Shown piece after piece: positions 15,724-59,532 of a DNA stretch of 64,000 nt. Numbering within the stretch: the stretch's first letter is position 1; each line of letters starts with the position of its first letter. The stretch comes from a virus. Location of the stretch: the IMG/VR virus record IMGVR_UViG_3300031227_000015; one strand, 5' to 3'. The notes under the pieces were generated by a model. The model was not told where the DNA came from and did not search any database. It was given only the letters and a program-made list of their open reading frames with translations. A program made the position numbers and the translations under genes.

Positions 15724-17238
15724 ATGAGACTAAAGAAATATATATCAATACACGACCTGCCTTTACTTATGGAGAAGGTATCTAAAAAGGATATAAAGTC
15801 CATCCTTAGTAGTGATGATGTTATTATAGGAGCAGAATTCGAATTTGTTAGTACTTATTTAGAGGAAATGGAGAGTAATAGTAAAGAAGCAGAAGAAGCA
15901 AGTAGTAGAGCTTATGATGCTTGGGAAAACTATGAAAGTGAACGAGATGACTGGGAAAGTGAAAAATCTAATGTGGACAATGCAATAAATGATGTTGAAG
16001 ACGAAATAGAAGATATACAATCAGAGGATGATTATAATTTTAAAGACATTGAAAGATTAGAAAAGAAATTAAAAGAATATAATGATAGTTTAGAGGATTT
16101 ATTTGATGAGCTACCAGAAATACCAGAAGATTTAATTGATTACGATGAGGAATATTGTGCCTTTAGAGAAAATTATTCCGGAAGTAGTCCTGGTGATGAA
16201 TTAGATGAACCTGGCCCACCTGATATGACTTATGATCTTGAAGAGCCATATATATGGGCAGAGACCGTTGAGAATTATTTAGAAACTATTGATGTACCGT
16301 TTAGTGATTATGGAGTTGGTGAAGCTTATGGTGATGTAGAACAGTCATTAGGTAGTAAAAAATGGGCCATAGAACCTGATAGCAGTGTGGGGGAAGAAGG
16401 CACAGGTATAGAAATCAAATCTCCACCCATGTCAGTAAAAGAATTTATAAAGATATGCCCCAAAATGTTTAAATGGATAAGTAAGCATGGTTATACTGAT
16501 AATAGTTGTGGTTTTCATATACATATGTCTTTAAAGAATAATACTAATCTCACAAAATCATTAGACCTTGTTAAGCTTACCATGTTTACCGATGAGAATT
16601 ATATTTTTAAGTTTTTCCCTGATAGAATAAATAATGAATATGCCAAGTCTATGAAGAAGGAAATGAATAAAGAGGGTGTCACAGAAGATGATTGGAAAGA
16701 TTTTATAGAGGTAAAGAAACTTAGAAATAAAGTGGCTTCAGAGCATTATACTTCAATCAACTGGGAAGGGTTAGAAGATGATAACCAACATATAGAGTTT
16801 CGTTATATGGGAGGGAGTCAATATCATAAGAAATGGGATAAAATAAAAACCATTATTGCACAGTATGGTTACAATTTAGATTTAGCTTGTAATGATGGTT
16901 CTCATAGGAAGGAATATGCCCTAAAGATACAAAGGATGTTGAATAAAGTTGAAATGGTTGAGATTAAAAGGAAATATGAATGGCTTGTTAATCTCGATCA
17001 GGCTGAAAAAGAAATGCCTAAAGAATGGAAGGATATTCATAGATATATAACTAAGGAGTTTAAAAAATATAGGAAACAATATGTAGATTTAGTTAGTATT
17101 TATGGTGCTAAGTCTGGTAAGGAGATTGGTAGTTACGGTATAAATAATTGGACAGAAGAAACCATGCATGAATTGTATAAGAGATTACCAAAGGATGTAA
17201 AGATGTCTTTTAGGGATTTTATGATGGAGTATATATAA
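15724..17238 (+). CDS. Putative amidoligase (COOH-NH2 ligase) with N-terminal leader
   Basis: IGAEFEF, EPDSS, GIEIKSPP, SCGFHIHMS, HY.SIN, IEFR. Confidence 0.8.
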   Translation: MRLKKYISIHDLPLLMEKVSKKDIKSILSSDDVIIGAEFEFVSTYLEEMESNSKEAEEASSRAYDAWENYESERDDWESEKSNVDNAINDVEDEIEDIQSEDDYNFKDIERLEKKLKEYNDSLEDLFDELPEIPEDLIDYDEEYCAFRENYSGSSPGDELDEPGPPDMTYDLEEPYIWAETVENYLETIDVPFSDYGVGEAYGDVEQSLGSKKWAIEPDSSVGEEGTGIEIKSPPMSVKEFIKICPKMFKWISKHGYTDNSCGFHIHMSLKNNTNLTKSLDLVKLTMFTDENYIFKFFPDRINNEYAKSMKKEMNKEGVTEDDWKDFIEVKKLRNKVASEHYTSINWEGLEDDNQHIEFRYMGGSQYHKKWDKIKTIIAQYGYNLDLACNDGSHRKEYALKIQRMLNKVEMVEIKRKYEWLVNLDQAEKEMPKEWKDIHRYITKEFKKYRKQYVDLVSIYGAKSGKEIGSYGINNWTEETMHELYKRLPKDVKMSFRDFMMEYI

Positions 17239-17252
17239 GGGAGAGAAGAGAT

Positions 17253-17645
17253 ATGAGACTAAAACGATTTTTGAATGAAGAGGATATGGTAAAGAAGGGT
17301 TTAAATGTGGGGGAACCTGAAGTTGGTGAGGAGTATGATGAAGAAGAGGTTGTGGCTAAAAAAGAAGTCCTTCAAATTGCTATAGGTAAACAAACAGAAA
17401 TATTGAGTAAATTGAGAAAAGGTGGAAATGAAGACCAATTGGAAGCTGCTCGTGCTATAATGTCTGACCTCAAGGATAAAGCAGAGAAGTGGGAAGACTG
17501 GAAAAAAGAAGTAAAATCTCAAGGTCCTAATCCCGAACCTGCTGCTGGAGAAGAGCCACCTCCTGAACCCGAAGAAGAAGAGGAAGAAGAGGAAGAAGAG
17601 GAAGAAGAGGAAGAAGAGGAAGAAGAAGAAGAAGAAGAAAAATGA
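17253..17645 (+). CDS. Acidic leader-bearing protein with a poly-Glu tail
   Basis: MRLKRFLNEE; long C-terminal E run encoded by GAA/GAG repeats. Confidence 0.65.
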   Translation: MRLKRFLNEEDMVKKGLNVGEPEVGEEYDEEEVVAKKEVLQIAIGKQTEILSKLRKGGNEDQLEAARAIMSDLKDKAEKWEDWKKEVKSQGPNPEPAAGEEPPPEPEEEEEEEEEEEEEEEEEEEEEEEK

Positions 17646-17659
17646 GACTAATGAAAAAT

Positions 17660-17745
17660 AGGAGGACAGAGGGTAGCTCCCTTTGGTTGAATGCCACTAC
17701 ATCTAACCTAACTCCTTTTAAATAAACCTTAGTGGGGGTAATATT
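17660..17745 (+). promoter_or_regulatory. Three-way-junction cis RNA with RBS pseudoknot (copy A)
   Basis: AGGAG-GA-CAG..hairpin..GGTTGAATG-CCACTA-CATCTAACC-TAA-CTCCT; loop pairs with TAGTGG at the RBS. Confidence 0.7.
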
Positions 17746-18627
17746 ATGAAAAAACTTAATTATAATTATGTAAAGGAACAAATAGAGAAAGAAGGATATC
17801 AATTACTTAGCAAAGAATATGTTAATAATAGAACCAAATTAAAAATACAATGTAGTAAAGGGCATAAATTTGAAATGCGATATTGTCATTTACAACAAGG
17901 ACAAAAATGTCCAAATTGTAATAATGATAACATCAGACTTAGTTATGATTATGTAAAGGAACAAATAGAAAGTGTTGAAGGTTATAAATTATTGTCACCA
18001 ACTTATAAAAATAGTAGGTCAAAAATAAAGGTACAATGTAGTAAAGGGCATATTTATAATGTTACTTATGGTAATTTTTATATGGGATATAGGTGTCCAT
18101 ATTGTGCGGGTATAAAATGCCATATATATGATTATGTAAAGGAACAAATAGAAAGTGTTGAAGGTTATAAATTATTGTCACCAACTTATAAAAATAGTAA
18201 AACCAAATTAAAAATACGGTGTGGTAAAGGACATGAATATGAGGTTGTATATGGCAGTTTTCATAGTGGTAGAAGATGCCCATATTGTAATAAATTTAAA
18301 GGAACATCAAAAGCAGAAAAAGAAATTGATGAAATGGTTAAGGAATTTCTACCTAATGAAAATATAATAGAGAATGACCGTACTCAAATAATTAATCCAC
18401 GAACAGGACACAATCTTGAACTTGATGTATGGATACCTTCATTGAAGAAGGCAATTGAATATAATGGCATATATTGGCATTCAGGTAATTTAACAAAAGA
18501 AAAAGATAAGGAAAAAATAAAACAATGCAAAGAAAAGGGTATAGAATTGTTAATTATAGAGGAAGAAGATTGGTATAGTAATAAAAATAATTGCATTGAA
18601 TTATTAAAGGATTTTATAAATGACTAG
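17746..18627 (+). CDS. Zinc-ribbon-repeat PD-(D/E)XK endonuclease (homing-endonuclease-like)
   Basis: Three C..GH....CP.C repeats; ELDVWIPSLKKAIEYNGIYWH. Confidence 0.8.
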   Translation: MKKLNYNYVKEQIEKEGYQLLSKEYVNNRTKLKIQCSKGHKFEMRYCHLQQGQKCPNCNNDNIRLSYDYVKEQIESVEGYKLLSPTYKNSRSKIKVQCSKGHIYNVTYGNFYMGYRCPYCAGIKCHIYDYVKEQIESVEGYKLLSPTYKNSKTKLKIRCGKGHEYEVVYGSFHSGRRCPYCNKFKGTSKAEKEIDEMVKEFLPNENIIENDRTQIINPRTGHNLELDVWIPSLKKAIEYNGIYWHSGNLTKEKDKEKIKQCKEKGIELLIIEEEDWYSNKNNCIELLKDFIND

Positions 18628-19354
18628 ACTGAAACATTATATAGATGAAGAACTTATAAATGAAAGTATTAATGATAAAGGTATCTTACATGCCTGTTTT
18701 TTATCTGGAATGAGTGGAAGCGGCAAATCGTATACAATCCAAAAAATTAAAGATGGTTCTATTGAGCCAAGAATTGTTAACACCGATAAAATGACAGAGC
18801 ATTTAAAAGCTTATGATATTGATAAATGGATTGATGTTGAAGATATTGTAAAAAGAACTACAAAGAACCAGTTAGTTCTTTATCTTAATAGCTTATTACC
18901 ATTATGGATTGATGGTACGTCTGCAAAACCCGCTTCTGTAATGAGAAGAAGTGGTATATTAAAATCAATAGGATATGATGTAAGTATGGTCTGGGTTACA
19001 GTATCTCTTGAGACTGCCTTAATTAGAACTAAAGAAAGATCTAAAACTGGTCGTGAAGTACCAGAAAAAATAGTTATTAAAATGTATAATCAATTACGAG
19101 GACTTAAAAAATATTATTCTACTGAATTTAATCATTTTACAGAAATTAAAAATGATGAAGGGGAACTTACTAATAAAGTTATATTACAAGCATATAAAAG
19201 GGAGACGACATTTTTCAATTCTCCCGTTAAAAATCCTATAGGTATACATCAAATAAATAATATGAAGAAAAATGGTCATAAATATCTTATTGATACAAAA
19301 GAATATGATAAGAAATATTTGGATAAATTAGTATCCAGTTGGTATAGGAAATAA
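18620..19354 (+). CDS. P-loop kinase (zeta toxin/AAA_33-like) with leader
   Basis: GMSGSGKS, VNTD, IDGT, R...R...GR.VP. Confidence 0.75.
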   Translation: MTRLKHYIDEELINESINDKGILHACFLSGMSGSGKSYTIQKIKDGSIEPRIVNTDKMTEHLKAYDIDKWIDVEDIVKRTTKNQLVLYLNSLLPLWIDGTSAKPASVMRRSGILKSIGYDVSMVWVTVSLETALIRTKERSKTGREVPEKIVIKMYNQLRGLKKYYSTEFNHFTEIKNDEGELTNKVILQAYKRETTFFNSPVKNPIGIHQINNMKKNGHKYLIDTKEYDKKYLDKLVSSWYRK

Positions 19355-19358
19355 ACTA

Positions 19359-19973
19359 ATGACGAGACTACAACAATACCTTATAAATGAAGAGTTTCAA
19401 GATATCAATAAATTAGTTGCAATGCTTAAAGCTGATTGTAAGCCCTATCTATCATTACTCAAAAGAACTGATAAAATGTTATGTAGAGGTATTGACTCTC
19501 CTCCTAAAACTAATATTTATGAAAATGAAGTATATTATTTTAAAAGTAAACCTCGTAAAGATCGTAGACCATTAAGCACAGGACCGTTAGTACATAAGCA
19601 ATTAGATGATCTGTTCAAAAAGAAGTTCGGATGGAAAGCAAGGAGTGAAGGAGTGTTTGTAAGCTCTGATTATGGAACAGCATCAGGATATGGACATACT
19701 TATTTCTTTTTCCCTATAGGACAATTTAAGTATGTATGGTCTCCCAAGGTAGGGGACATATGGATATATCTTAAATCACATATAAGCAGTAGAAAAGGAA
19801 AGAGTGAACAACCAGATTTATCAGCAACAGTAGATTCATATATAGATAAAAGTTTAGTGAAGGCTATAGAATTGGAGCATGAAGTGGCAATTAAATGTAA
19901 AGAGTACTATATGGTTGATGTGGAACTTGATGGAGAAACCTTTTCAAGAGTATTTAAGGATGCATTGCTATGA
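19359..19973 (+). CDS. Leader-bearing protein, paralog of 43836-44564 (possible ART-like fold)
   Basis: MTRLQQYLINEE; CKP, RG, R.DR.P, FGW..RS.GVF, YG, P.G..KYVW. Confidence 0.6.
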   Translation: MTRLQQYLINEEFQDINKLVAMLKADCKPYLSLLKRTDKMLCRGIDSPPKTNIYENEVYYFKSKPRKDRRPLSTGPLVHKQLDDLFKKKFGWKARSEGVFVSSDYGTASGYGHTYFFFPIGQFKYVWSPKVGDIWIYLKSHISSRKGKSEQPDLSATVDSYIDKSLVKAIELEHEVAIKCKEYYMVDVELDGETFSRVFKDALL

Positions 19974-20401
19974 GTAGATTCCAGAAATACCTTTTAAGAG
20001 AGTGGAAGGTAAATAAATCCTACTCAGGTAGAAGCATGATAAAACCTAATAGTACTATTTTATGGCAATATATACCTTCTAAAGGTCTTGTTTACACACT
20101 TTCTGATGGCACTACATATGTCAATAACAAAAAGATAGGTAAGATGATACGCTCGGATTCTCCACAAGCTACTCATAAGAAGCAATTAGCATCCTTTTAT
20201 AGTGAATTGGGGTTTAAGGATAAGGACAAGAGGCAATACATAGAAGATATATATGAAACTTTTGTTAGAGGAAGGATAGTAGACAAGAACATTTATGTGT
20301 ATTCTTCTGATTATGTTGGTATAGAGGCAAAAAAGTACAACAGAACTATGGATAAGGCAATTGATATGATTTATAAATATGTTGATGAGGATTATAATTA
20401 A
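19970..20401 (+). CDS. Leader-bearing hypothetical protein
   Basis: MSRFQKYLLRE; GRI...IYV...DKAI..IYKY shared with the 22700 and 43435 ORFs. Confidence 0.6.
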   Translation: MSRFQKYLLREWKVNKSYSGRSMIKPNSTILWQYIPSKGLVYTLSDGTTYVNNKKIGKMIRSDSPQATHKKQLASFYSELGFKDKDKRQYIEDIYETFVRGRIVDKNIYVYSSDYVGIEAKKYNRTMDKAIDMIYKYVDEDYN

Positions 20402-20402
20402 T

Positions 20403-21827
20403 ATGAGACTCCAGAGATATATAAATGAAGCAAAGGAACAACTAAAGCAATGGAAGGACTATGTGAGGTCTAACAAAATGCTCAAAGCAGCTGTTAAAAT
20501 ATTAGAAAAAATTAATAAGAAAGGATACAAAGCATATATAGTTGGTGGAACTGTCCGTGATATAATCCTTGGAGAAAAACCTCATGATGTTGATATTGCT
20601 ACTAATATGCCTATACCCGAAATAGAAAAATTATATAAGACCTATGATATTGGTAAATCTAAGACATTTGGTATTGTTGTTGTTAAAGAAGGAGGTTATG
20701 ATTTTGAGCTGGCTTTATTCAGGAATGACGGGAAATATTCTGATGGGAGGAGACCCGAATCTGTTATTGTTACTGGTTCGTTTGAGCAAGATGCTTCTCG
20801 TAGAGATTTTACTATCAACGCTATGGGAATCAATGCGAAAGGTGAAATTTTGGATTACTTCGATGGTAAGAAGGATATTAAGAACAAGGTTTTAAGAACA
20901 GTTGGTAATCCACATGAACGATTTGGAGAAGATTACCTTAGGATGATGAGAGCACCGAGATTTGCTTCTAAACTTGGATTTGATATAGAGAAGGGTACTA
21001 AGAAAGCAATCAAGAAACTATCTAAAAATATTATTAAGTTATCCCCTGAACGCATAAAGGATGAGATAATGAAATCAGCTGCTCAATCAGGAGACAAGTT
21101 CGCTAAGTATATCATACAGTTGGATAAGTTAGGTATACTCAAACATATACTACCAGAGATAAAACAGTTACAATATAGTCCTGAAGATCTAACACACCAT
21201 CCTGAAACTATCGGTAAGGGCGGAAGTCCATTTGCTCATACTATGGAAGCACTTAAAGTTTCTAATACAAGAGAACCTTTGAAGAACCTTGCTATACTTT
21301 TACATGATGTTGGAAAGGGTGTTACGTTTTCTGATACAACACCAGGTAAGATTTATACATATTATGGACATGATGCTGAAGGTGTAAAACTTATAGAGGA
21401 AATTGCTAAGAGATTGAAGATGTCTAATAAGGAAAGAGATACTTTATTATTTACAGCGGCTAACCATATGAAATTCCACCGTATGAAGGAGATGAAACCC
21501 TCTAAAATATTCAAATTAGTTAATGATGATAATTGGGATGCATTAATTTCTGTAGCTATGGCTGATGAATTTTCAAGAGGAGAGAAGTTCATGAGTAAGA
21601 AGGATTTTGATGCCTCTTTAAAGGCTGCTATAAAGATAAAAGAGAAATGGGGTAAGAAGGAAGTTAAAAAGAGGATGAAACTTGTGGATGGTAATCATGT
21701 GATGGAATTGTTGGGTATAGGTCCAGGTAAAAAGGTTGGAGAAGTGATAAGGAAAACAACTGAATGGATATTAGATATGGATATTTCAAAACAAGAAGAA
21801 ATAGATAAGTATATAAGGGGTATATAA
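20403..21827 (+). CDS. cca: CCA-adding tRNA nucleotidyltransferase with HD domain and leader
   Basis: VGGTVRD, DVDIAT, RRDFTINA, EDYLRMMRA.RF, ERI, HT..LLHDVGK; MRLQRYINE leader. Confidence 0.9.
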   Translation: MRLQRYINEAKEQLKQWKDYVRSNKMLKAAVKILEKINKKGYKAYIVGGTVRDIILGEKPHDVDIATNMPIPEIEKLYKTYDIGKSKTFGIVVVKEGGYDFELALFRNDGKYSDGRRPESVIVTGSFEQDASRRDFTINAMGINAKGEILDYFDGKKDIKNKVLRTVGNPHERFGEDYLRMMRAPRFASKLGFDIEKGTKKAIKKLSKNIIKLSPERIKDEIMKSAAQSGDKFAKYIIQLDKLGILKHILPEIKQLQYSPEDLTHHPETIGKGGSPFAHTMEALKVSNTREPLKNLAILLHDVGKGVTFSDTTPGKIYTYYGHDAEGVKLIEEIAKRLKMSNKERDTLLFTAANHMKFHRMKEMKPSKIFKLVNDDNWDALISVAMADEFSRGEKFMSKKDFDASLKAAIKIKEKWGKKEVKKRMKLVDGNHVMELLGIGPGKKVGEVIRKTTEWILDMDISKQEEIDKYIRGI

Positions 21828-21873
21828 GGAAGGGGTATATTATGAGATTATAACAATATATAAGGAGGTTATT

Positions 21874-22209
21874 ATGAGTATACAAGAAAAAATAGAAAAA
21901 TATTTGGTTAATGAAGGTAAAGATGAGTATAAATATGATACTATGTTAGCTGATAATATTGCTGATATTATTGAAACACATTTAAAAGGAAAAAACGCAT
22001 ATATTAAAGGTGAAAAACTTATCAAAAAGGAAATAAAAGAAGCTAAAAAAAGAACAGGATATAAAGGAAAAAATTGGAAAGAACTTTTACAAGATGCTGT
22101 AGATAATCTTGAAATTATGTATGATTATGAAATACATGATGCACCTGTTAGTAGTAATAAAGGTAATAAAATATCTAATTTTATAGATATACTTGAGAAG
22201 ATAAAATGA
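21874..22209 (+). CDS. Leader-bearing hypothetical protein
   Basis: IEKYLVNE; AAGGAGG RBS. Confidence 0.6.
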   Translation: MSIQEKIEKYLVNEGKDEYKYDTMLADNIADIIETHLKGKNAYIKGEKLIKKEIKEAKKRTGYKGKNWKELLQDAVDNLEIMYDYEIHDAPVSSNKGNKISNFIDILEKIK

Positions 22210-22703
22210 GATTAGAACAGTATATAAATGAAGGTTCAGAAGAATTTTATGACATCTTAGCCTCCAACCACAAGAAATTTCATGAACACATGACCAGTAT
22301 GGATGAAATGTTTGATAAGGATGTGAAGTTGGATAAACCAATGTGGGATGGTAAATATTTTACTGTAAAGTTCACTGTAGAAAATACCATATATACATTC
22401 AAAGCCATGGAGAATGATAAAAATGAATATTCCATACTTTTTTACTCCTTCGACAAAAATTTATTTGACATAAAAGGTGATAAAAGATATGTAGGTGATG
22501 TGTTTTCAGGAGTTGTTAAATCATTACAAGCACTTATTAAAACAAGAAATGTGGAAATGTTTTGGTTTAACACTAATGAGCCTAAATTGATAAAACTATA
22601 TGACAAGGTACTAAAGAAATTAGAAAGGAAGTTTAAAGGATATGAGTTTGATAAATCCTTAGTAGTTGATGATTACAAATTCTGGAGATTTGAGAAAAAA
22701 TGA
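22206..22703 (+). CDS. Leader-bearing protein, paralog of 23780
   Basis: MRLEQYINE; S..EMFDKDV, GDVFSGV. Confidence 0.6.
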   Translation: MRLEQYINEGSEEFYDILASNHKKFHEHMTSMDEMFDKDVKLDKPMWDGKYFTVKFTVENTIYTFKAMENDKNEYSILFYSFDKNLFDIKGDKRYVGDVFSGVVKSLQALIKTRNVEMFWFNTNEPKLIKLYDKVLKKLERKFKGYEFDKSLVVDDYKFWRFEKK

Positions 22704-23119
22704 GACTACAACAATACCTATTAAGAGAAGCAAGAGTAAGGAAGACAAATGCTGATGTCTTCTTAAATGATTACGCTCCTATTTTCATGTGGAGCCCTAA
22801 AGATGGATTCTTATGGGCTGTATGGGATGAAGATGAGAGATGGATGCTATTTCATGGGTCAAAAAAATTGGAAAAAAGATTTGAATATACACATACTTCT
22901 TATACACATCCCCAATTGTTAAATGCTTACAAGGGTAATGATAGGAACCTTGAAAAATTCATAACAGGAAGAATAAGCCCCGATGGAAGAACAATTTATG
23001 TGCATGATTTCGGTAGTAGACCTTACCTTGCTGATACTATAACAACTATTCGTTATGATAAATATGTTGATAAAGCAATAGATAATGTTTATAGGTATAT
23101 GAAGGGTTACATTAAATAA
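22700..23119 (+). CDS. Leader-bearing protein, paralog of 43435-43839
   Basis: MRLQQYLLREARVRKTNA. Confidence 0.6.
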   Translation: MRLQQYLLREARVRKTNADVFLNDYAPIFMWSPKDGFLWAVWDEDERWMLFHGSKKLEKRFEYTHTSYTHPQLLNAYKGNDRNLEKFITGRISPDGRTIYVHDFGSRPYLADTITTIRYDKYVDKAIDNVYRYMKGYIK

Positions 23120-23132
23120 GGAGATAATTAAT

Positions 23133-23447
23133 ATGAAACTAAAACAATATTTGCTGAATGAAGAAAGACTGAGTGGTGGCGACAAGAAGACCCTAAAGGG
23201 GTATATCAAAAATCCTAAAAAAGCTTCCTTCTTGTTAAGTTCATTTTCCAAGAATTATGATGAATCGGAAAGAGAAGTAGATGTTGAGAAATTGAAAGAT
23301 GGGGTAGAATTTACTTATAATATGGATCACTATGAACTGACAAATGCTTTAGTCAATATGGTTGATAGTATGGATGAATATCAATTTAGTACCAGTGGTG
23401 AAAAACAAACCAATACCATGTACTTCAAGGTATCGAAGGAAAAATAA
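23133..23447 (+). CDS. Leader-bearing hypothetical protein
   Basis: MKLKQYLLNEE. Confidence 0.6.
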   Translation: MKLKQYLLNEERLSGGDKKTLKGYIKNPKKASFLLSSFSKNYDESEREVDVEKLKDGVEFTYNMDHYELTNALVNMVDSMDEYQFSTSGEKQTNTMYFKVSKEK

Positions 23448-23783
23448 ATGAGTATAACCTATACACCAAAGGGCACTCCAGCGATGAAAATTGGAAATTA
23501 TCAATTAACCTTAACTTCTACCAGTGGGGATAAGGAAAAATGGAAATGGTTAACTGTTTCTACTGGCAGTAATAGAGACATAGTACCATTTACTCTTCTT
23601 GGTCTAAAACAAAAGGTGGTACCTCTAAAGCTCAGGAATAGAATGAAGAAAGTATTTAAGAAGTATGTTGCTAAGGATGGGTTCATATACAAGAAAGATG
23701 TAGAGAAGTTATGCAATGATCTTAGTATAATGGATGAGAGTGTTACTAACCGTATGGATGATTTACTGGATTTATTACTATGA
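23448..23783 (+). CDS. Hypothetical protein
   Basis: ORF in operon. Confidence 0.55.
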   Translation: MSITYTPKGTPAMKIGNYQLTLTSTSGDKEKWKWLTVSTGSNRDIVPFTLLGLKQKVVPLKLRNRMKKVFKKYVAKDGFIYKKDVEKLCNDLSIMDESVTNRMDDLLDLLL

Positions 23784-24310
23784 AATTTCAACGATATATG
23801 GATGAAGATGGACATATTGAAATTTTAACAAGTTGGGAATATCAAAATCAACTTCATGGATTTAAATCATTAGAAGAAATGTTTGATAAAGATGTTGAAT
23901 TTGGTAAAGTAACAAATACTAAAGAGTTATTGATGGTAAACTTCAGCACAAGTAACGATAAATGGGCATTCAAAGCTAGTAGGGTATTAGGAGAAGATGA
24001 TATATATGGTATTTTATTTAATAAAGTAGGAGATAAACCTGAAAATATGTTTAATCCAAAGGGTGGTAGTGATTATACTGGTGATGTGTTTAGTGGTGTG
24101 TTCAGATGTATTGAAAAATTGATAAAGGATAGAAATAGAAATGTAAATGGTATAGCCTTTAAAACTGTTGATAGGAAGTTGTTATCATTATATAAGAGAA
24201 TGTCAAAATGGGTAGAAAAGAGATTCCCGAATTTTGTGTTTCAAAAGGAATTACATAAAAAAAACTCTACTGAATTCGTATTTATGAGAAAGGGGATTGA
24301 GATTAGATGA
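23780..24310 (+). CDS. Leader-bearing protein, paralog of 22206
   Basis: MKFQRYMDE; GDVFSGV. Confidence 0.6.
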   Translation: MKFQRYMDEDGHIEILTSWEYQNQLHGFKSLEEMFDKDVEFGKVTNTKELLMVNFSTSNDKWAFKASRVLGEDDIYGILFNKVGDKPENMFNPKGGSDYTGDVFSGVFRCIEKLIKDRNRNVNGIAFKTVDRKLLSLYKRMSKWVEKRFPNFVFQKELHKKNSTEFVFMRKGIEIR

Positions 24311-25038
24311 GACTAAAACAATACTTGAATGAGAAAAGGATTCGTAGATTTAGGTTTAAAAAGCAGAAGAAACGTATTGATCCTATAGTGCGCATAAAGA
24401 AGGCTGAATCTATAGTAAAGAAAGGGTTAGTTAAACTTACTAAAGAATTAAGTAGTGTAGGATGGAGTATTGAGTTCTTTGATCTTCTAAAAATCATGAG
24501 TTCAGTATGGAAAAGGGATCGTATAAAGTTTATTCCTGATGAAGGATTGGTTCGTATGAAAGAATTAAAAAACGCCAAGTATATGGATTCTGGTGATACT
24601 GATATAGATGGTGATATAGAATTACAAATTACTACAAGAATTATGGATTATATTTCTAAAGAGCAAAACAAGGAAAGTTTATCCAGTATAAAGAATGAGT
24701 TTGCACAAGAATTTGTTAGAGTGTTGTCTCATGAATTAGTACATAGAGCACAATGGCAATCTTATGGTGAGATAGTACATAAAAGCATTCTTAAAAATAG
24801 AAAGGTCAAGGATAGTTATGTACAGTATAAAGAGTACCTGAAATCTCCTCACGAAATGATGGCATACGCACAAGATGCAGCATATGAAATTTTTCAAAAC
24901 AGAGAGCCTGGTATATACTATTTATATCAATATTGGTTTGATGATGAGCCAGAAGTCTTTAAAAGCTTTGTAAAAATAATGAAGAAATCCTATAAGAAAA
25001 TCAGTGATGGGGAAGAGTTGATAATCGAGGTTAGATAA
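24307..25038 (+). CDS. Leader-bearing HExxH zinc-metallopeptidase-like protein
   Basis: MRLKQYLNE; LSHELVHRAQ...YL.SPHEMMAYA. Confidence 0.65.
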   Translation: MRLKQYLNEKRIRRFRFKKQKKRIDPIVRIKKAESIVKKGLVKLTKELSSVGWSIEFFDLLKIMSSVWKRDRIKFIPDEGLVRMKELKNAKYMDSGDTDIDGDIELQITTRIMDYISKEQNKESLSSIKNEFAQEFVRVLSHELVHRAQWQSYGEIVHKSILKNRKVKDSYVQYKEYLKSPHEMMAYAQDAAYEIFQNREPGIYYLYQYWFDDEPEVFKSFVKIMKKSYKKISDGEELIIEVR

Positions 25039-25040
25039 TT

Positions 25041-25355
25041 ATGAGATTTTTACAATACTTAAATGAAGAATTGTTTACAACAGGACAAACAGATACATGG
25101 GATAGTAAAAAATTTAAACCTCTTGAAGTTTTTATAAATCCTTCTAGAAGTGAATTAAGAGGAATATCAAAGCATGTTAGATATGTAATTGATAATAAAA
25201 CTAAAACACTTTATGCATGGAATGGTACATGGGCATTACATTCTGATGTATGGAAAAATATTCTAAAGAAGAAACTTAAAGATAGTAGAAATTTTGATGA
25301 TGTTACATTAAGGCGTAGTAGTTATGCTACTGGTGATCGTTATCCTAATAGATAA
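25041..25355 (+). CDS. Leader-bearing protein, paralog of 55095-55514
   Basis: MRFLQYLNEE; F.NP...E..VR...DNKTK.LY.W. Confidence 0.55.
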   Translation: MRFLQYLNEELFTTGQTDTWDSKKFKPLEVFINPSRSELRGISKHVRYVIDNKTKTLYAWNGTWALHSDVWKNILKKKLKDSRNFDDVTLRRSSYATGDRYPNR

Positions 25356-41225: not shown

Positions 41226-41743
41226 TATTTTTTACTCCTTTCCAACCTAATTTCTATACCGTTTATCTCAATATCAATATCATCAGGTAATTCGTAAGGT
41301 AACGACTTCTTTCTTTCTGCATATGCGTATCCTTTGAACACATCCGTATGTTTTTTGAGTATATATTTTGATATTTTTCTGAACATATCAATTTTACGCT
41401 TTTCTGCAAATATATAATACTCTATAGCCTTAGGTCTAATAGTTTCTATAAGTTCCTTCATAACTACAGCTACACCATCCATCACACTAAATGGCGTATG
41501 TTTATTGGTTATATTAGCCAATATGCTACCTGTTGGGTCATTGTATGTAAATGATAAATGATAAACCTTATTACCTTTATGGAAAACATTAACAGTATAA
41601 TAATCCTTACCAACCCAAAAATACCATTCATTCTTACCTTTCCATTTTACTACAGTCGTTAGATCAATAGCTTCATTAATACCATTGATATAATTATTCT
41701 CATCCACCGTTGACCAAAATTTATAATATTCCTGCAACCTCAC
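41225..41743 (-). CDS. Leader-bearing hypothetical protein
   Basis: MRLQEY...INEA. Confidence 0.55.
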   Translation of the reverse strand: MRLQEYYKFWSTVDENNYINGINEAIDLTTVVKWKGKNEWYFWVGKDYYTVNVFHKGNKVYHLSFTYNDPTGSILANITNKHTPFSVMDGVAVVMKELIETIRPKAIEYYIFAEKRKIDMFRKISKYILKKHTDVFKGYAYAERKKSLPYELPDDIDIEINGIEIRLERSKK

Positions 41744-42007: not shown

Positions 42008-43438
42008 TTAGTCCTCCAATTCCTTATCCTTCATGACCTTTACGATTTCAGTTTGTATTTTCCTCATAAAATCAGTAAAACCTTTACCATAAAAGTTTAG
42101 ACCACTAACGTTCGTGATATCTTTATGGCCTCCTGACTGGCTCATTACTAAATCCCATAAACTTATACTTACCTTCTTCAATATACTCTTTTGTTCCTTT
42201 GATAATTGTGTATATGGTTTATTAGTAATGTCCTTTATCATACCTTCCCATCTATCATTTCCTTTCAAACCTTTGATATCCTTTTCAAATAGAGCCATCA
42301 TATCCTTGAAAGTGAAACCCATTGATTCTGCATTAAATGATTTATCCTTCTCAAAGGTGTATTTTATGTAATCCAGAGTTACCTTTATAGACTGCATTTT
42401 ACTCTTGAATTTAGGCAATACTTTTTTCATTACTATATCACCAAGATGGTATGGATTCTTACCACCCTTGAATGGGTTTTTACTCAATTGTACCAAACCC
42501 ATCGGCCACACAATAGTATAGAAATCTGCTGTAGGGTGGTTTTTAAATGGTGTATAACGGTCATAAAGATTTCCCTTACCCATAAAACCACCACCATATT
42601 GTACTATAGTGGTACCTATTAATATGGAAGCACCGCTTTTTAAACTCTTCACGTCACTTAATTTACCATTAATCTTAATTTTACCTTTAACTTGCTTAAT
42701 ATATTTTTCTTGATCTGTTTCTAATTGTTCAGGTGGTCTATAACCAGCTTCTTTAGCTATTTTAATTGTTGTATTATATATAGAAATGAGTGAAGGTTTT
42801 GCTTGCATTACCAAGTCTGTAAGGAAATCCTTTTTGTTTTTATGGGCTAATATTAATTTGTTTGTAGCGAAACCCATCATTTGGTGATTTACCTTACCAC
42901 CTTTCCTTTTATCAACCTTGAATACCGCTCTCATAATATCATCGGGCGTAAGATCCTGTGAGCCAAAATCTGCCGAATCAACTGTGGATATTATCTTAAC
43001 ATCTTTCGGTGGAAATAGGTCATTAGGAGATAATACTTGTGATATATAGGCTGCATTAGAAGGGGTCTTAACAAAAGAAGTGGAGGTTCCCTTTTCTACA
43101 CCTATCTGGCCTTCATGGTGGTCGGTGTGTATATTCATTACAGGTTTACCATGTGCGAAATCAACCATACAAACCAATGTCTTATTTTTTGGTTTAGGCA
43201 CTGCATACTCTTCTCCTCCGTACTGAATAGGATGTGCATCAATAGTTTTGATCCTATATTTTTGTAAATAAGCCTTCAATCCTATAGCTGAAGTAACACC
43301 GTCAAGTCAAAGATCCTTATGGAAGTAGATTTCTGCAGTCTTGTATTCTTTCGCAAGATCAGTAATATTGCGCAAACCCGATTCCATAAGGACCGATAAT
43401 ACCTCCTCTACGTCATTAAGTCTTTCCAAAATATTCAT
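42008..43438 (-). CDS. DHH/DHHA1 phosphoesterase interrupted by an in-frame TGA (candidate recoding)
   Basis: ATG at 43438 overlaps the upstream stop; IYFHKDL*LDGVTSA, VDF, TDHH, VDSADF, GGH. Confidence 0.85.
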
Positions 43439-43839
43439 GCTATGTAACCTCCCATATATTTATATACTGCATTTATGGCTTTATTCATTCGTTTTTCAAA
43501 TTTTTTAGCAAGAAGTATGGGATTTTCTTTATAATTAAAACCGTTAACAAATATTGTACGACCTTCAGGATGTATTCTTCCACTTATAGTATTACTTTCA
43601 TAAAATTCTTTATTAACAATTTCCATTAATTCCCAATGTGCAAACCAAGGTTTATTAGAGGAAACCTTTTTTATTTCTTTATTATTCTTATAAATTATCC
43701 ATTTTGAATCTTTATAGATAGACCATAATAAACCTGTAGAGTCTGACCATACAAAAGTGGGTACATATTCTTTTAAAAATATTTCAGCATTTGTTTGTTT
43801 TACTCTCGCTTCCCCTAATAAATATTGTTGAAATCTCAT
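43435..43839 (-). CDS. Leader-bearing protein, paralog of 22700
   Basis: MRFQQYLLGEARVKQTNA. Confidence 0.6.
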   Translation of the reverse strand: MRFQQYLLGEARVKQTNAEIFLKEYVPTFVWSDSTGLLWSIYKDSKWIIYKNNKEIKKVSSNKPWFAHWELMEIVNKEFYESNTISGRIHPEGRTIFVNGFNYKENPILLAKKFEKRMNKAINAVYKYMGGYIA

Positions 43840-44564
43840 ATTATTAGTTCCTTTATAATTAACTGTAATTCATATGAATGGTCTACTGCCATTACTATAT
43901 ATTCCTTACATTTAAATATTGCTTCAAAATTATATTTGTCAGAATTGGGTACTAATCCAGATGTTTTGTAATCCTTGGAATAAATATCTTCAATCTCTAA
44001 TTTAAAATCATTAAGAAATGTCAATGCATCATCAATATCTTTTTTACTTTTATCAATAGCAGACTTTTCAACATCTTTAAAATAATCAATCCAGTCATCT
44101 TTATTAGATTCATTAAATTTTTTAATATCTTTCAAGTGTTCAGCATGATAATTATAACGGTCATAAAGATCATATATATCATCCGTATTCTTTATCCATA
44201 CATATTTATAATTACCAGAAGGTATAAAGATAGTTTTTTGTCCATAAGTTTTAGCCTTCATATGATTACCAGTAAATACACCATCACTTCTTATATTCCA
44301 TCCGAACAACTTCTTACCCATTTTATTCATAAAAGCATGAAGATCCTTGTTTATAAACCTCGGTAATCTATCTGTTCTTGGTTTCAATACTCTGAAAGTT
44401 TTTACATTTTGACCTTTTAGACCACGATATATGAAATTGTTCCTTATATAGTCTTTTCCAAACTCTTTAAGGAAAGGCTTGCAGTTATTAGCAATATAAT
44501 CACTGAGTTGTCCTCTTGTTCTATTACTCAAAGTGTTTTCATTTATATACTGTTGTAGTCTCAT
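43836..44564 (-). CDS. Leader-bearing protein, paralog of 19359
   Basis: MRLQQYINE; CKP, YRG, R.DR.P, FGW..RS.GVF. Confidence 0.6.
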   Translation of the reverse strand: MRLQQYINENTLSNRTRGQLSDYIANNCKPFLKEFGKDYIRNNFIYRGLKGQNVKTFRVLKPRTDRLPRFINKDLHAFMNKMGKKLFGWNIRSDGVFTGNHMKAKTYGQKTIFIPSGNYKYVWIKNTDDIYDLYDRYNYHAEHLKDIKKFNESNKDDWIDYFKDVEKSAIDKSKKDIDDALTFLNDFKLEIEDIYSKDYKTSGLVPNSDKYNFEAIFKCKEYIVMAVDHSYELQLIIKELII

Positions 44565-45085
44565 ATGTTTTTCACTATTTTTAATTTTTTAGTGTTAAAC
44601 CATACAGTTGATTCAACATCCCATGAATACAATGATGATGACAATGATGATAAATTTTTATTTTTTCGTACACCATTTGAGGTAACATATAAAGCATCAT
44701 AAACCTTTGAAAACTTTACAAAGTCTATATAGGTGTTATCCATTCTCAATTCGCTTTCCATAAATTTATAAGGGAATTTTTCTAATAATTTTTCAAAATG
44801 GGAACTATTGTCTATAATATACATACTTACACCCGGTTGGATTTCTAAAACTGTACCACTTGAAATATCACCATAACCCTCTCCTTCAGACCATTCAGCC
44901 CACTCAGACCATTTATCACCTTTAAGGGTGCTTGTCCAGAATCCATTATCAGGTTTATTTAAAAAAGCTTGTTTATTAGTGGTGTTCTTTTTAACGGGTT
45001 TTAAACTTTTTATAGCAGGCATAGCTAATTGATATCTATAACCTTTTGCTACCGCCTCATTTATATATTTCTGTAGTCTGCTCAT
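44561..45085 (-). CDS. Leader-bearing hypothetical protein
   Basis: MSRLQKYINEA; KP.NGFWTS, YDA, WDVES. Confidence 0.6.
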   Translation of the reverse strand: MSRLQKYINEAVAKGYRYQLAMPAIKSLKPVKKNTTNKQAFLNKPDNGFWTSTLKGDKWSEWAEWSEGEGYGDISSGTVLEIQPGVSMYIIDNSSHFEKLLEKFPYKFMESELRMDNTYIDFVKFSKVYDALYVTSNGVRKNKNLSSLSSSLYSWDVESTVWFNTKKLKIVKNI

Positions 45086-45712: not shown

Positions 45713-45734
45713 ATCGTATCCTTATTTATATATT

Positions 45735-51241: not shown

Positions 51242-51253
51242 TTTTTACCTCCT

Positions 51254-52524: not shown

Positions 52525-53076
52525 TCATTTTAATACACCCCTCATTGCCTTCTCAAAAGTATCTAATGCCTTAATTTCCTTTTCGGTCCCACCCATCCTA
52601 TCTAAAACCTTCCTTACATACCTCAATTCCTTTTTAATGTATTCAATATCTTCATACCAGTAGTTTATGGTAGCAATTTCTATTCCAAATACTGATTGTA
52701 TGATATGCCTTATATGTGCTGTTAATCCTATAGATACTTTATCGAGTTGCATCAACATTCCCATAACATCCTTTTTATTTATAGACTTAAACACATTCTT
52801 AGCATCCTTGACTAATTCCTTCCTTGATTCATTATCCCTTACATCCGTCATCATGAATAGAGTTGCATATCTCAATAAATCCTCAGTACCCTTTTCAGCA
52901 CCTCTGAAGTAATCTACAAGGCTTTTAGATTTCTTAACTCTGAAACCCATCTTCTTACCGGCAGATTTCAGCTTTTCAAAAGTATCATTACCCATTTCAT
53001 CTAATCGTAATAATTCACCAAGTCCTATATATTCACTTAGTATATTATCTTCATTTATGTAAGCCTGTAATCTCAT
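52525..53076 (-). CDS. Leader-bearing hypothetical protein
   Basis: MRLQAYINED. Confidence 0.6.
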   Translation of the reverse strand: MRLQAYINEDNILSEYIGLGELLRLDEMGNDTFEKLKSAGKKMGFRVKKSKSLVDYFRGAEKGTEDLLRYATLFMMTDVRDNESRKELVKDAKNVFKSINKKDVMGMLMQLDKVSIGLTAHIRHIIQSVFGIEIATINYWYEDIEYIKKELRYVRKVLDRMGGTEKEIKALDTFEKAMRGVLK

Positions 53077-54421: not shown

Positions 54422-55090
54422 TTATTTAATCTCCTTGAGTTTTCCTGAAGGTAGAACAAGCAATCCATAGAAGGATATTACAGGGAATGTTTCACCGTCA
54501 GGAATATGATGTTTTTCTCTAACTCTATTTATGATGTCTTGGGGTAAGGTTTGCTCTATTGATAGGAATTTTTTGATGTTAGTCATATCGTCGTCTAAGA
54601 GTCTACAACGTCTGTATTCACCTGATTCTAAATATTTCATTATAGTTTTTTTCTTTTGGCCTGATATACTTGTTGTACCTTCAGGTGAAAATTCTACATC
54701 AATTTTATCTATCGGCAAACCAACCTTTTTGAATGCAGCTTTGAATTTCTTCATATCTTTAAATCTTGATCGAGCCGTTAGTAGTACTACCTTTGATTCT
54801 CTGTAGTCTATATTCTTGAACATGCGTTTTACTCTATTTATAGTAGGTAGGATTGGTTTAGATGTATCATAAAATATAGAAGCATCTCTAAACTCAGAAT
54901 AATCATAACTCTCTCCAGGTTTGAGTTCATAGGTGTTGAATTCTTGATTAGAAAGTTTTTTGATTACTTTACCATCCTTTAGTACATAAATTTTAGCGAA
55001 TGTGTTGAAGAGCGTGCAATCTATATCGATAAAAGTGATACCGGCACCATATATTGAGCTTAATTCATTTAGGTGTTTCCGTAGTCTCAT
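54422..55090 (-). CDS. HAD-superfamily phosphatase with leader
   Basis: MRLRKHLNE; FIDIDCTLF, LLTAR, K, LLDDD..N. Confidence 0.8.
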   Translation of the reverse strand: MRLRKHLNELSSIYGAGITFIDIDCTLFNTFAKIYVLKDGKVIKKLSNQEFNTYELKPGESYDYSEFRDASIFYDTSKPILPTINRVKRMFKNIDYRESKVVLLTARSRFKDMKKFKAAFKKVGLPIDKIDVEFSPEGTTSISGQKKKTIMKYLESGEYRRCRLLDDDMTNIKKFLSIEQTLPQDIINRVREKHHIPDGETFPVISFYGLLVLPSGKLKEIK

Positions 55091-55541: not shown

Positions 55542-55582
55542 TATTTATATTTATACTTTAAATATAAATAGATATATAAATA
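55542..55582. promoter_or_regulatory. Divergent T4-type late promoters
   Basis: TATAAATA on minus (55542, 55548) and plus (55563, 55575) between divergent gene blocks. Confidence 0.6.
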
Positions 55583-55602: not shown

Positions 55603-56157
55603 ATGAGGTTCCAAGAATATTTAACAAGTGAAGGATTGCTTGTAGAGAATATCTTTCAAAAATATATGAAAAAACTGTCCAATAAGTCATCTAAGGTAGT
55701 AGAAAAATTGATGAAGGATAGTTGGATTAAGTTAGCAATCATATTAAAATCAAATCAATTAGAAAAAGATGCCCTTGATATAATTAACAAGCATTTCAAA
55801 ACCAATTATAGGAATTTAGATCAGGTAAGTAAAGCCAAAATAGCAAAAATGCCTACTAAGGGTGTGTATGAAGAGGAAATGCTAGTAGAGGATTTTAAGA
55901 ATTATTGGAAATTTTTAAAGGATCAGTTATTTCCAACACTTGCATTTTGGCCAGCATTAAAAATTTGGCTTGAAATTGATAAACTTGTTGCTGGATCAGG
56001 TGGAGCTGATTTCCAAACTATAGGAATTTATGCAATATTTTGGGTATTTCTTGTAAGTGGTAAATTTGTAGGTTCTTGGAATGAATGGAAAAAGGAAAAT
56101 TCAAAAGAATATGAAAAGGAAGGTAGTAGGAAAAATCCTTTTGCTGTAAAGAAATAG
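55603..56157 (+). CDS. Leader-bearing protein with hydrophobic C-terminal segments
   Basis: MRFQEYLTSE. Confidence 0.6.
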   Translation: MRFQEYLTSEGLLVENIFQKYMKKLSNKSSKVVEKLMKDSWIKLAIILKSNQLEKDALDIINKHFKTNYRNLDQVSKAKIAKMPTKGVYEEEMLVEDFKNYWKFLKDQLFPTLAFWPALKIWLEIDKLVAGSGGADFQTIGIYAIFWVFLVSGKFVGSWNEWKKENSKEYEKEGSRKNPFAVKK

Positions 56158-57694: not shown

Positions 57695-58155
57695 TGAAGG
57701 ATCTTAAAGATGTCAGGAAACATGGGCAGTTCATACCCCATGATCCTAAAAAATATGTGGGTAGATATCCAATAATAGCAAGATCTTCCTGGGAACGAGT
57801 ATTCTTCCAATGGTGCGATGCCAATTCTTCTATAGTTGAATGGTCCTCTGAGTCTGTTATTATACCTTACTTTGACCCGATTAAACAAAAAAGAAGAAGG
57901 TATTTTCCCGATGTCTATATGCTTGTGAAAGGTAAGGATAATAAGTTACAACAGTTCATAATCGAAATTAAACCATTCAAGGAGTGTAGACCGCCTACTA
58001 ATAGAGGAAGAAAGACTAAAAAGACACTACTCTATGAGAATAGTACATGGGCTACAAATAATGCTAAATGGATAGCAGCAACAAAATGGTGTAAAAAGAT
58101 GGGAATGGTGTTTAAGATTGTAACTGAAAAGGAATTATTCGGTAAAAGGAGTTAA
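57694..58155 (+). CDS. gp4: Head completion nuclease (T4 gp4-like)
   Basis: P.KY.G, RSSWE, WSSE...IPY, RYFPD, IEIKP, N.AKW.AA, TE..L. Confidence 0.9.
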   Translation: MKDLKDVRKHGQFIPHDPKKYVGRYPIIARSSWERVFFQWCDANSSIVEWSSESVIIPYFDPIKQKRRRYFPDVYMLVKGKDNKLQQFIIEIKPFKECRPPTNRGRKTKKTLLYENSTWATNNAKWIAATKWCKKMGMVFKIVTEKELFGKRS

Positions 58156-58306
58156 ATATGAATAGATCAATGGAAAAAGCGATGGAAAAGGTCACAGGTA
58201 TAAAATACAAAAAAATTATATCTTCCAATGATTTATTTTCCGATGATCAGTTGGATGAAATTTTAAAAGATCTTGAAAATGATGAGGAAAGGGTAGATAA
58301 TGATCA

Positions 58307-58786
58307 ATGAATTTTGAAAAATGGTTAGAAGGCCTTAGTGATAAAGAACTTGAAGAGGCCATGAATGTTAAATATGATTACATTGACAATACTAAAGGTC
58401 TTATAGGTAGATGGAGTTTCATATCAAAGAGTGGTAGACGATACGATGTAACAGGTTCTAAATTATCGAAAGATATTTTCCATGCAATGTTTGAATATGT
58501 TGATAAAGAAGGCAATACGATGTCATCCCTTACAAACTTTAAGGATAATCCAACTGCCATAATGAATTCAGTGTACAATATTGTAGAAACTGAACTTATT
58601 AAAAAATATCATCCTAAAGAATTGAGATTTGAAGCTGAAGGTGATAAGAGACAAAAAATGTATGATGTAGTAATAAGGAGATATATACTTCCAAAAATGA
58701 AAAAATACGGATATGACCTATATACAGAAAAGAAGGAAGAATTACCAATGAAAATATATAGATTTATAAAGGAGTTAAAAGTATGA
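58307..58786 (+). CDS. Leader-bearing hypothetical protein
   Basis: MNFEKWLE..LEEA. Confidence 0.55.
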   Translation: MNFEKWLEGLSDKELEEAMNVKYDYIDNTKGLIGRWSFISKSGRRYDVTGSKLSKDIFHAMFEYVDKEGNTMSSLTNFKDNPTAIMNSVYNIVETELIKKYHPKELRFEAEGDKRQKMYDVVIRRYILPKMKKYGYDLYTEKKEELPMKIYRFIKELKV

Positions 58787-58983
58787 AATTCAATGAATGG
58801 TTAATCAAAGAGATGCAGGGAAAGGGAACTGGTCCAGAAGGTTCAGGCGGAGCAGATACATGTATATGCCCTGAATGTGGCAACGAAGCATCACATGAAA
58901 GAGGAACACCTTGCAATCAATCTAAATGTTCAAAATGTGGTGCATCAATGACTGGTAAAGGAGCACCTGGAGAGAAGAAATAA
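58783..58983 (+). CDS. Small Cys-rich zinc-binding protein with leader
   Basis: MKFNEWLIKE; GG...CICPECG....HERG.PC....C..CG..M. Confidence 0.6.
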   Translation: MKFNEWLIKEMQGKGTGPEGSGGADTCICPECGNEASHERGTPCNQSKCSKCGASMTGKGAPGEKK

Positions 58984-59532
58984 GTGAGATTGAAGGCTGT
59001 TATAGATAATTTTCACAACCATTTAGTAGAGATAGCCAATAATTGGAAACCTAATGACCCTGCTGTACGAAAGGTTGGTAGGGGTAAATGGGTTTTTACC
59101 GTAGATGTTGATGATTATATATTTAAAGTATCACCTCTATGGATGAAAGATGGTAGAAAGGGGTTTACTATAGAATGGGGACCTGTTGATGAGAATGGTA
59201 ACATAATAACAACAGAAATAATAGGTAGCAAGAAGAACAAAAGAGACGTATTTAGACTTGTGTTGACTTGTTTATCTAAGTTTATAAATTCTGAAAGACC
59301 GGAAGTGTTCTCCATGTATGTAAATAATAGGATTGTTCACATATACGATGCTATGTGGGCGGGACACTATAAGGAAAAACCGTTTAACCAATATTACAAA
59401 GATTCTGAAGAGCATAAAACATTGAATGGTGAAAAAGTTTATGTTCATTATTTCAATAAGAAGAAGGTAGATGGTGAGGATGTTTCAGAAGATATGAGGA
59501 TATTACTAAAAAGAGAAATGTTGCTGTTATGA
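58984..59532 (+). CDS. Leader-bearing hypothetical protein
   Basis: MRLK...LVE. Confidence 0.55.
   Translation: MRLKAVIDNFHNHLVEIANNWKPNDPAVRKVGRGKWVFTVDVDDYIFKVSPLWMKDGRKGFTIEWGPVDENGNIITTEIIGSKKNKRDVFRLVLTCLSKFINSERPEVFSMYVNNRIVHIYDAMWAGHYKEKPFNQYYKDSEEHKTLNGEKVYVHYFNKKKVDGEDVSEDMRILLKREMLLL

Follow-up and report, generated by a model that had tools for sequence, protein, structure and literature searches.

In bacteriophage T4, the capsid-targeting sequence (CTS) is MKTYQEFIAE (PMC8442874), in which genetic evidence implicates residues 4 and 7 in targeting and residues 8 and 10 in processing (PMC9026906). In the phiKZ-like giant phages SPN3US, phiKZ, and 201phi2-1, ejection or inner-body proteins carry long propeptides that are cut at (A/S/G)-x-E (PMC5694885, PMC10052503), and Iyer, Burroughs, Anantharaman and Aravind described in 2022 effectors that are packaged into heads as fusions with MuF or portal domains, along with polyvalent proteins (PMC9503650). 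Here, we analyze a 64,000-nt fragment of an uncultured T4-related phage (IMG/VR record IMGVR_UViG_3300031227_000015), referred to as the window, in which about one gene in five encodes a protein that starts with the same short N-terminal leader. We propose that this leader is probably a T4-type CTS, belonging to a much enlarged and sequence-divergent variant of the T4 system. A leader of the same kind predicts virion membership almost perfectly in the Agrobacterium jumbo phage Atu_ph07, one cultured relative for which proteomics are available. No published description of such a leader system in jumbo phages was found, and a literature search with the leader strings returned the T4 CTS only.

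A preliminary description of this DNA had reported that about 25 unrelated late proteins share an N-terminal leader. On translation of all 25 listed starts the motif was seen, and the starts of these open reading frames (ORFs) give the nine-residue consensus M-(R/K)-(L/F)-x-x-(Y/W)-(L/I)-x-E. The count of 25 was slightly high, as 19 leaders are clear and six (15724, 21874, 41743, 55603, 58307, and 58984) are degenerate or displaced. Those at 41743 and 58984 have GTG starts and lack the Glu, the leader at 58307 likewise has no Glu, and that at 55603 ends in T-S-E. The leader is therefore counted in 19 to 25 genes per 64 kb. A six-frame scan of the window with a regular expression (regex) gave 22 matches, compared with a mean of 0.42 and a maximum of 3 in 50 shuffled sequences. 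Twenty of the 22 matches fell on listed ORF starts; of the other two, one lay at an internal Met (54586) and one in a short dead frame (58748). Moreover, across the 19,707 residues of called ORFs, the strict core [RK][LF]xx[YW][LI]xE occurs nine times, always among the first 12 residues and at no internal position. When the 22 window leaders are aligned, Leu or Phe at position i is joined by Tyr or Trp at i+3 in every one, and the strict (L/I)-x-E ending is present in approximately 18.

The distribution of the leader genes also agrees with what had been described. No regex match lies in 1-14,700 or 25,400-40,400, so that the leader is indeed absent from the early and replication genes, and the replication blocks of the window hold a gp43-type DNA polymerase, two helicases, and a gp44-type clamp loader. 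The leader blocks had further been placed downstream of TATAAATA-type motifs, and every intergenic copy fits this placement: the copies at 14742/51/62, 45723 (-), 55542/48 (-), 55563/75, and 60899 all precede leader-gene or structural clusters. No + strand copy is found in the + strand blocks 1-14,700 or 28,000-40,500. At the level of motif matches, each leader cluster has intergenic copies ahead of it, and the replication blocks have none. The overall enrichment is mild, as the 14 and 19 sites found compare with approximately 11 and 9 expected, and the motif is thus not strongly over-represented.

Most of the carriers are unrelated to one another, as stated in the preliminary description, although four small paralogue groups have to be set apart. 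An all-against-all BLASTP comparison gave these four groups (Families A, B, C, and D, with two, three, three, and two members, respectively) and 15 singletons, or approximately 19 families. The portability implied by the earlier term "portable address tag" is thereby borne out. The four groups, together with an array of paralogues in Atu_ph07 (gp54-63), do allow the idea that the carriers are simply paralogues descended from one gene and that the start they share is without a separate function. We find this hardly credible because distinct Pfam families carry the leader, the 15 singletons show no detectable similarity past residue ~10, and a second leader was gained after a CCA-adding enzyme gene was split. 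This split is seen in the related loci L006, L007, and L010, where one ORF encodes the nucleotidyltransferase and another the HD domain (L007:3185-4764); the second half, which begins at a stop/restart overlap, carries its own leader MRLMNFINE and a linker of ~48 residues. Two leaders on the two halves fit what would be expected if each polypeptide needs its own address.

The leader also appears to stand apart from the proteins that it precedes. The catalytic Pfam domains begin well after it, at residue 44 in the CCA-adding enzyme and at residues 25-27 in the kinase, and in AlphaFold2 (AF2) models, the leader is a low-confidence N-terminal appendage outside the fold. The CCA-adding enzyme at 20403-21827 matches further Pfam domains (PF12627, E = 7.9e-14; HD domain PF01966, E = 2.9e-5), and its sequence combines a PolyA_pol head with an RNA-binding neck domain, as predicted for an enzyme of this type. 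The HAD protein at 54422-55090 matches PF18143 HAD_SAK_2, an HAD phosphatase family of RNA-repair type, weakly and below the cut-off (E = 2.5e-4), as well as phrog_415, a polynucleotide kinase family (E = 2.9e-6). For most of the small leader proteins, no Pfam or PHROG family was matched. The isoelectric point (pI) is at least 9 in 16 of the 25 carriers, which resembles the basic internal proteins of T4.

Comparing the window leader with the T4 CTS, which is encoded twice in the T4 genome, it becomes apparent that both follow the same spacing. The CTS has hydrophobic residues at i, i+3, and i+4 and a Glu at i+6, and L3, Y6, L/I7, and E9 of the window leader are placed likewise; the variants starting MSRL, MTRL, or MGRL restore the exact T4 register. 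When this generic spacing pattern was applied to the T4 genome, it recovered IPII, IPIII, gp24 (MAKINELLRE), and Alt (MELITELFDE), which are known substrates of gp21 (PMC5694885). Two other T4 proteins show related starts: gp61.1 (NC_000866: 18966-19130, -), a hypothetical protein of 54 amino acids (aa), begins MKTFKEFIKE, which is nearly the CTS, and the DNA-end protector gp2 (NC_000866: 76061-76885, -) begins MAIFQIINE with the same spacing.

The leader is widespread in related genomes. A search with the CCA-adding enzyme recovered ten IMG/VR loci, all of them dense in the same leader. In a protein database, at least 120 orthologues were found at ≥60% identity; the leader regex is matched by 99 of 120, and the regex-negative sequences are mostly close variants or gene calls from a later Met. 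Among 50 nonredundant leaders of relatives, Leu or Phe at i is accompanied by Tyr, Phe, or His at i+3 in all 50, and 42 have the Glu where it would be expected. The leader variants follow the genome and not the attached protein. The window shares the form MRLxxY(L/I)xE with its close relatives, G001 and L005 use M(R/K)F(D/E)E(Y/F)Y, which also heads the L005 orthologue of the CCA-adding enzyme, and Atu_ph07 uses MRW(E/H)QLxE. This genome-by-genome pattern of sequence variants points to co-evolution with a genome-specific partner.

In G001, a complete 264-kb relative with terminal repeats, the head genes are arranged in T4 order: portal, a gp21-like protease (Peptidase_S77; PF03420, E = 3.6e-26), scaffold, and major capsid protein. 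The N-terminal region of the capsid protein contains an L-G-E↓A site similar to the maturation site L-T-E↓A of T4 gp23. Four leader genes directly follow this head module. Similarly, Atu_ph07 encodes a gp21 homologue (gp204), and leader-like starts are present on small Atu_ph07 proteins adjoining its portal and protease. Its gp214, given only as an unresolved gp22 match (PMC6102473), contains 25 (L/I)-x-E sites. Separately, the G001 gene for the CCA-adding enzyme (L009:8422-11102, ~260.0-262.7 kb) is apparently interrupted by a GIY-YIG homing-endonuclease-like ORF (L009:9166-9931), and its C-terminal part restarts at 9917.

To relate the leader to virion content, we used the Atu_ph07 virion proteome, in which electrospray ionization tandem mass spectrometry (ESI-MS/MS) listed 131 of 714 proteins (Attai et al. 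2018, Supplementary Table S5; PMC6102473); that paper makes no mention of a shared N-terminus. The leader regex for Atu_ph07 was fixed before the proteome was consulted and was run over the whole 490-kb genome (NC_042013). It identified 21 ORF starts, 20 of them annotated genes, and 19 of these 20 proteins are on the virion list, compared with the 131 of 714 overall (Fisher p = 5.6e-14). The sole annotated protein found by the regex and off the list, gp597, matches the motif poorly. With the addition of gp196, recognized by homology, 20 of 21 leader-bearing Atu_ph07 proteins are in the virion list. The isolated leader genes gp381, gp482, gp548, gp561, and gp672 are all on it, and the genes flanking them are off it.

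Several of the Atu_ph07 proteins are homologous to those of the window. The amidoligase homologue gp196 carries the degenerate leader MRWQDISS, where that of the window has MRLKKYIS, and is on the virion list. Family A is represented by gp408 and by the gp54-63 array, all members of which start MRW(E/H)QLxE. A domain homologous to the window kinase is found in gp53 (39484-41820, 778 aa), a leader-bearing virion protein that is represented by 31 unique peptides. The leader of gp53 is MKWNDLNE, and the protein unites this P-loop kinase with a family-A-like YRGM domain; the window has separate leader genes for the two (18620 and 19359). The CCA-adding enzyme of Atu_ph07, gp18, is leaderless and off the virion list. 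It starts ~24 residues nearer to the GG motif, which is at residues 23-24 in gp18 vs 48-49 in the window enzyme.

As the Atu_ph07 data show virion association only, the leader could also be a docking peptide that is retained and fixes proteins to an external, tail, neck, or whisker structure instead of marking head-internal cargo, and whisker-like structures are indeed present on Atu_ph07-like phages (PMC6102473). We consider this unlikely, given that the predicted cargo consists of enzymes that act in the cytoplasm (CCA-adding enzyme, kinase, HAD phosphatase, and amidoligase) and not of adhesins, that the leader combines the spacing of the T4 CTS with an ending that is a head-protease motif, and that leader genes in G001 directly adjoin the head module.

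Similarly, the leader might be a tag for some other phage system, such as a modifying enzyme, a ubiquitin-like cassette, a Clp-type chaperone or protease, or an intracellular compartment, with its presence in virions being secondary. A cassette of ubiquitin-like (Ubl), E2, E1, and JAB genes lies just upstream of the leader cluster, at 9695-12694, and seven Clp-family proteins are encoded by Atu_ph07 (PMC6102473). However, no Lys, Cys, Ser, or Thr that might be a target of modification is invariant in the leader, and an association of 20 of 21 proteins with the virion is hard to call secondary, which makes this explanation quite improbable. In addition, neither the Ubl cassette nor Ro60 was found in G001 or Atu_ph07 by tblastn (E 1e-3), although both genomes use leaders, and a link of the leader to either was thus rejected. 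The Ro60/TROVE-vWA protein of the window (13034-14644, +), which bears no leader, is encoded directly upstream of the cluster that holds the RNA-end enzymes.

Codon usage in the leaders indicates the level at which they are conserved. Leu is encoded by CTA, TTA, CTG, CTC, or TTG, Tyr by TAT or TAC, and Gln by CAA or CAG, and the residue swaps seen in the window and in the 50 nonredundant leaders of relatives are conservative (L/F, L/I, and Y/W). Likewise, the Arg and Lys codons of the Atu_ph07 leaders include CGT, AAA, AGA, and AAG. Taking the window, the relatives, and Atu_ph07 together, every conserved leader position varies either synonymously or to a chemically similar residue, and therefore, as judged from these sequences, selection on the leader acts at the amino-acid and not at the nucleotide level. 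A nucleic-acid signal, that is, a translation-initiation or regulatory RNA element of late mRNAs with the peptide as a by-product, would account for the bias toward CTA at Leu in position 3 and for an Arg that is almost always AGA. This reading was rejected as very improbable because synonymous and conservative changes occur at all conserved positions; furthermore, lineages that differ in sequence keep the same chemistry, and the extra residue of some variants displaces the nucleotide register but leaves the peptide as it is. The bias toward this otherwise rare codon (9 of 15 leaders in the window and 13 of 29 leaders of relatives vs 11% genome-wide) could stem from a shared origin of the leader segment or from a constraint on the initiation region.

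Several points weigh against a T4-type CTS. Within the window, a clean (L/I)-x-E is missing from four to six leaders, and a head that takes up enzymes of 474 and 504 residues as well as over 20 further species would be very crowded. The TATAAATA motif is weakly enriched in AT-rich DNA, so that the late timing of the leader genes is one that we infer. The head modules and gp21-like proteases examined are those of relatives. Atu_ph07 is distant from that phage (~27-32% identity; ~29% in Family A and ~27% in DNA polymerase), and its leader is one residue shorter and has no aromatic residue. Its virions were purified with polyethylene glycol (PEG), and the list includes a RecA-like protein, an ssDNA-binding protein, and ribonucleotide reductase as likely contaminants (PMC6102473); therefore, late proteins present in large amounts may have been carried along. 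Being at protein level, the published table does not report on cleavage after the Glu or separate a head-internal from a tail or whisker location (PMC6102473).

On balance, we favor a T4-style capsid-targeting role, as the preliminary description had suggested; this role is supported by the T4 spacing, the (L/I)-x-E end, the gp21-like head modules of relatives, and the 20 of 21 Atu_ph07 proteins. By analogy with T4 and Atu_ph07, we infer for the window's phage that the leader proteins are packaged, lie inside the head, are cleaved after the Glu, are injected, and act as cargo. In such a scheme, the leader genes would be transcribed late, and the nine or ten N-terminal residues would attach to the scaffolding core while the prohead assembles, by which any protein behind them would be incorporated into the head. 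Next, a prohead protease of the gp21 type would most likely cut after the Glu of (L/I)-x-E, freeing the mature protein among the DNA, and the packaged proteins would enter the host together with the genome. The cargo would constitute a ready-made kit for host takeover and RNA repair, comprising the CCA-adding/HD enzyme, the P-loop kinase, the HAD phosphatase, and the amidoligase, along with a putative family resembling ADP-ribosyltransferases (ARTs) and many small basic proteins.

We advance more tentatively the broader proposal that a peptide code readable from sequence addresses dozens of enzymes per genome, including a complete-looking tRNA/RNA end-repair kit and ART-like proteins, to the capsid across a very large and mostly uncultured clade of the T4 superfamily. 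Injected phage proteins are hard to establish and are known for only a few model phages; if the proposal is true, genomes alone could suffice to predict the injected protein set of such phages. In that case, RNA repair would arrive premade with the DNA, blunting tRNA-cleaving host defenses before phage gene expression, and the combination of RNA-end repair enzymes with putative ARTs suggests immediate counter-defense and host takeover before transcription. Through the leader, many of the ~100 hypothetical virion proteins reported for Atu_ph07-like jumbo phages would likewise acquire a function. As a compact tool, the leader could also direct foreign proteins to large phage heads, a use to which the T4 CTS is already put.

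Table 1 Leader-bearing genes and late-promoter-like motifs of the window. The + strand cluster spans 14904-25355.
Feature	Coordinates	Strand	Leader and remarks
Three overlapping-spaced TATAAATA motifs	14742..14769 (14742/51/62)	+	Intergenic, ahead of cluster 14904-25355; consensus match
Amidoligase_2 protein, 504 aa	15724..17238	+	Degenerate leader MRLKKYIS, no Glu at usual place; PF12224, E 8.8e-10
Acidic 130-aa protein, pI 4.2, poly-Glu tail	17253..17645	+	MRLKRFLNE; no family match
P-loop kinase (AAA_33/Zeta-toxin-like)	18620..19354	+	MTRLKHYIDE; PF13671 2.6e-9, PF06414 2.7e-8; domain from residue 25-27
Family A protein, possible ART-like fold	19359..19973	+	MTRLQQYLINE; phrog_11975 3e-30
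Family B protein	19970..20401	+	MSRFQKYLLRE
TATAAATA	20372..20379	+	24 nt ahead of CCA-enzyme ATG
CCA-adding tRNA nucleotidyltransferase with HD domain	20403..21827	+	MRLQRYINE and linker; PF01743 3.8e-33 from residue 44
111-aa protein	21874..22209	+	Uncertain leader MSIQEKIEKYLVNE, motif displaced by 6 residues
Family C protein	22206..22703	+	MRLEQYINE
Family B protein	22700..23119	+	MRLQQYLLRE
104-aa protein	23133..23447	+	MKLKQYLLNE
Family C protein	23780..24310	+	MKFQRYMDE
Basic 243-aa protein	24307..25038	+	MRLKQYLNE
Basic 104-aa protein	25041..25355	+	MRFLQYLNE
97-aa protein	40511..40804	-	MKHKLEHYILDE at second Met of frame
Acidic 143-aa protein	40794..41225	-	MGRLQDWLNE
Family D protein	41225..41743	-	Degenerate leader RLQEYYKFW, GTG start
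Family B protein	43435..43839	-	MRFQQYLLGE
Family A protein, possible ART-like fold, helical-hairpin insert	43836..44564	-	MRLQQYINE; phrog_11975/15932
174-aa protein, phrog_8582	44561..45085	-	MSRLQKYINE
Intergenic TATAAATA	45723..45730	-	Ahead of minus-strand cluster 45712 to 40511
Basic 183-aa protein	52525..53076	-	MRLQAYINE
HAD-type phosphatase, resembles polynucleotide kinase-phosphatase	54422..55090	-	MRLRKHLNE; DxDxT motif visible
Divergent pair of doubled TATAAATA	55542..55582	55542, 55548 (-); 55563, 55575 (+)	Between two leader-gene clusters
Basic 184-aa protein	55603..56157	+	MRFQEYLTSE
Family D protein	58307..58786	+	Degenerate leader MNFEKWLEGL
66-aa Cys-rich zinc-ribbon-like protein	58783..58983	+	MKFNEWLIKE
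Family C protein	58984..59532	+	Degenerate leader RLKAVIDNF, GTG start

Family A is a virus-only family for which there is no Pfam model. AF2 modeled the protein at 19359-19973 with a predicted local distance difference test (pLDDT) score of 82, with leader residues 4-11 below 50, and that at 43836-44564 with a pLDDT of 85, with residues 1-8 below 50. VIA-align placed ART-fold structures (Arr, exotoxin A, cholix, diphtheria toxin, and DarT) among the matches of the shorter paralogue (19359), and nine of its ten top Protein Data Bank (PDB) matches were of this fold, but with low Z scores of 3.4-4.8. The 242-aa model (43836) was swamped in the same comparison by its helical hairpin. An Atlas search gave a weak match to Arr (TM score 0.38-0.43), Foldseek against the PDB gave no match at E ≤ 0.001, and a profile search against PDB sequences returned nothing. 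In ARTs, the catalytic positions are Arg/His, Ser/Tyr, and Glu; here, R43 and E175 are invariant. Judging from these models, Family A is possibly ART-like, which we regard as a lead, not a finding.

The clusters contain other genes and features of note. The product of 17253-17645 is extremely acidic, unlike the mostly basic cargo, and may act as a DNA mimic or as a component resembling the core or scaffold. The ORF at 42008-43279 (-), of 423 aa, has no family match, and its frame extends upstream to 43438 through an in-frame TGA at 43307-43309, around which the motif HKDL*LDG is found. The N-terminus MNILERLND in this extended frame was rejected as a leader, being at best very degenerate and unconvincing. 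HNH homing-endonuclease genes without leader sit within the leader-gene clusters at 17746-18627 (+) and 56228-57040 (+). At 45735-47255 (-), a collagen-repeat, tail-fiber-like protein is encoded in a local GC peak (42% vs ~32%). In a distant blastn search with 45000-52000, only the collagen-like repeats of this gene matched, in a 735-kb uncultured phage and a Microcystis phage, and megablast of the leader cluster against cultured phages gave no match.

Among known systems, the head-packaged effectors carried by MuF or portal proteins share with the window the idea that ARTs and enzymes acting on RNA or nucleotides are loaded into myovirus heads and injected. However, these effectors are fused to a structural domain, whereas the window would rely on a short detachable tag. 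The phiKZ-like phages package and eject many proteins, including enzymes, which are cut after Glu by a gp21-related protease, and the targeting of these proteins to the prohead is ascribed to their propeptides. Unlike the window leader, these propeptides are mostly 80-130 residues long with no short shared consensus, their P3 residue is small and not Leu or Ile, and they belong to another lineage. T4 itself offers the closest parallel. As with the T4 CTS, a tag of approximately ten residues stands at the N terminus of unrelated proteins, with the same spacing and a terminal (L/I)-x-E. Likewise, the window has a gp43-type polymerase and a gp44-type clamp loader, its relatives have gp20, gp21, gp22, and gp23 in T4 order, the cargo is mostly basic and associated with late-promoter-like motifs, and one cargo family may be ART-like, as is Alt. 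The differences lie in scale and wording: 19 to 25 genes in 64 kb vs a handful in T4, and MRLxxYLxE, one residue shorter and known here from sequence, vs MKTYQEFIAE. We know of no large RNA-metabolism enzymes like those of the window cargo that are packaged in T4, whose kinase and ligases are made after infection. Finally, Atu_ph07 shares with the window the homologues of Family A, the kinase, and the amidoligase with an analogous leader; Atu_ph07 itself has a T4-type head module with a gp21 homologue.

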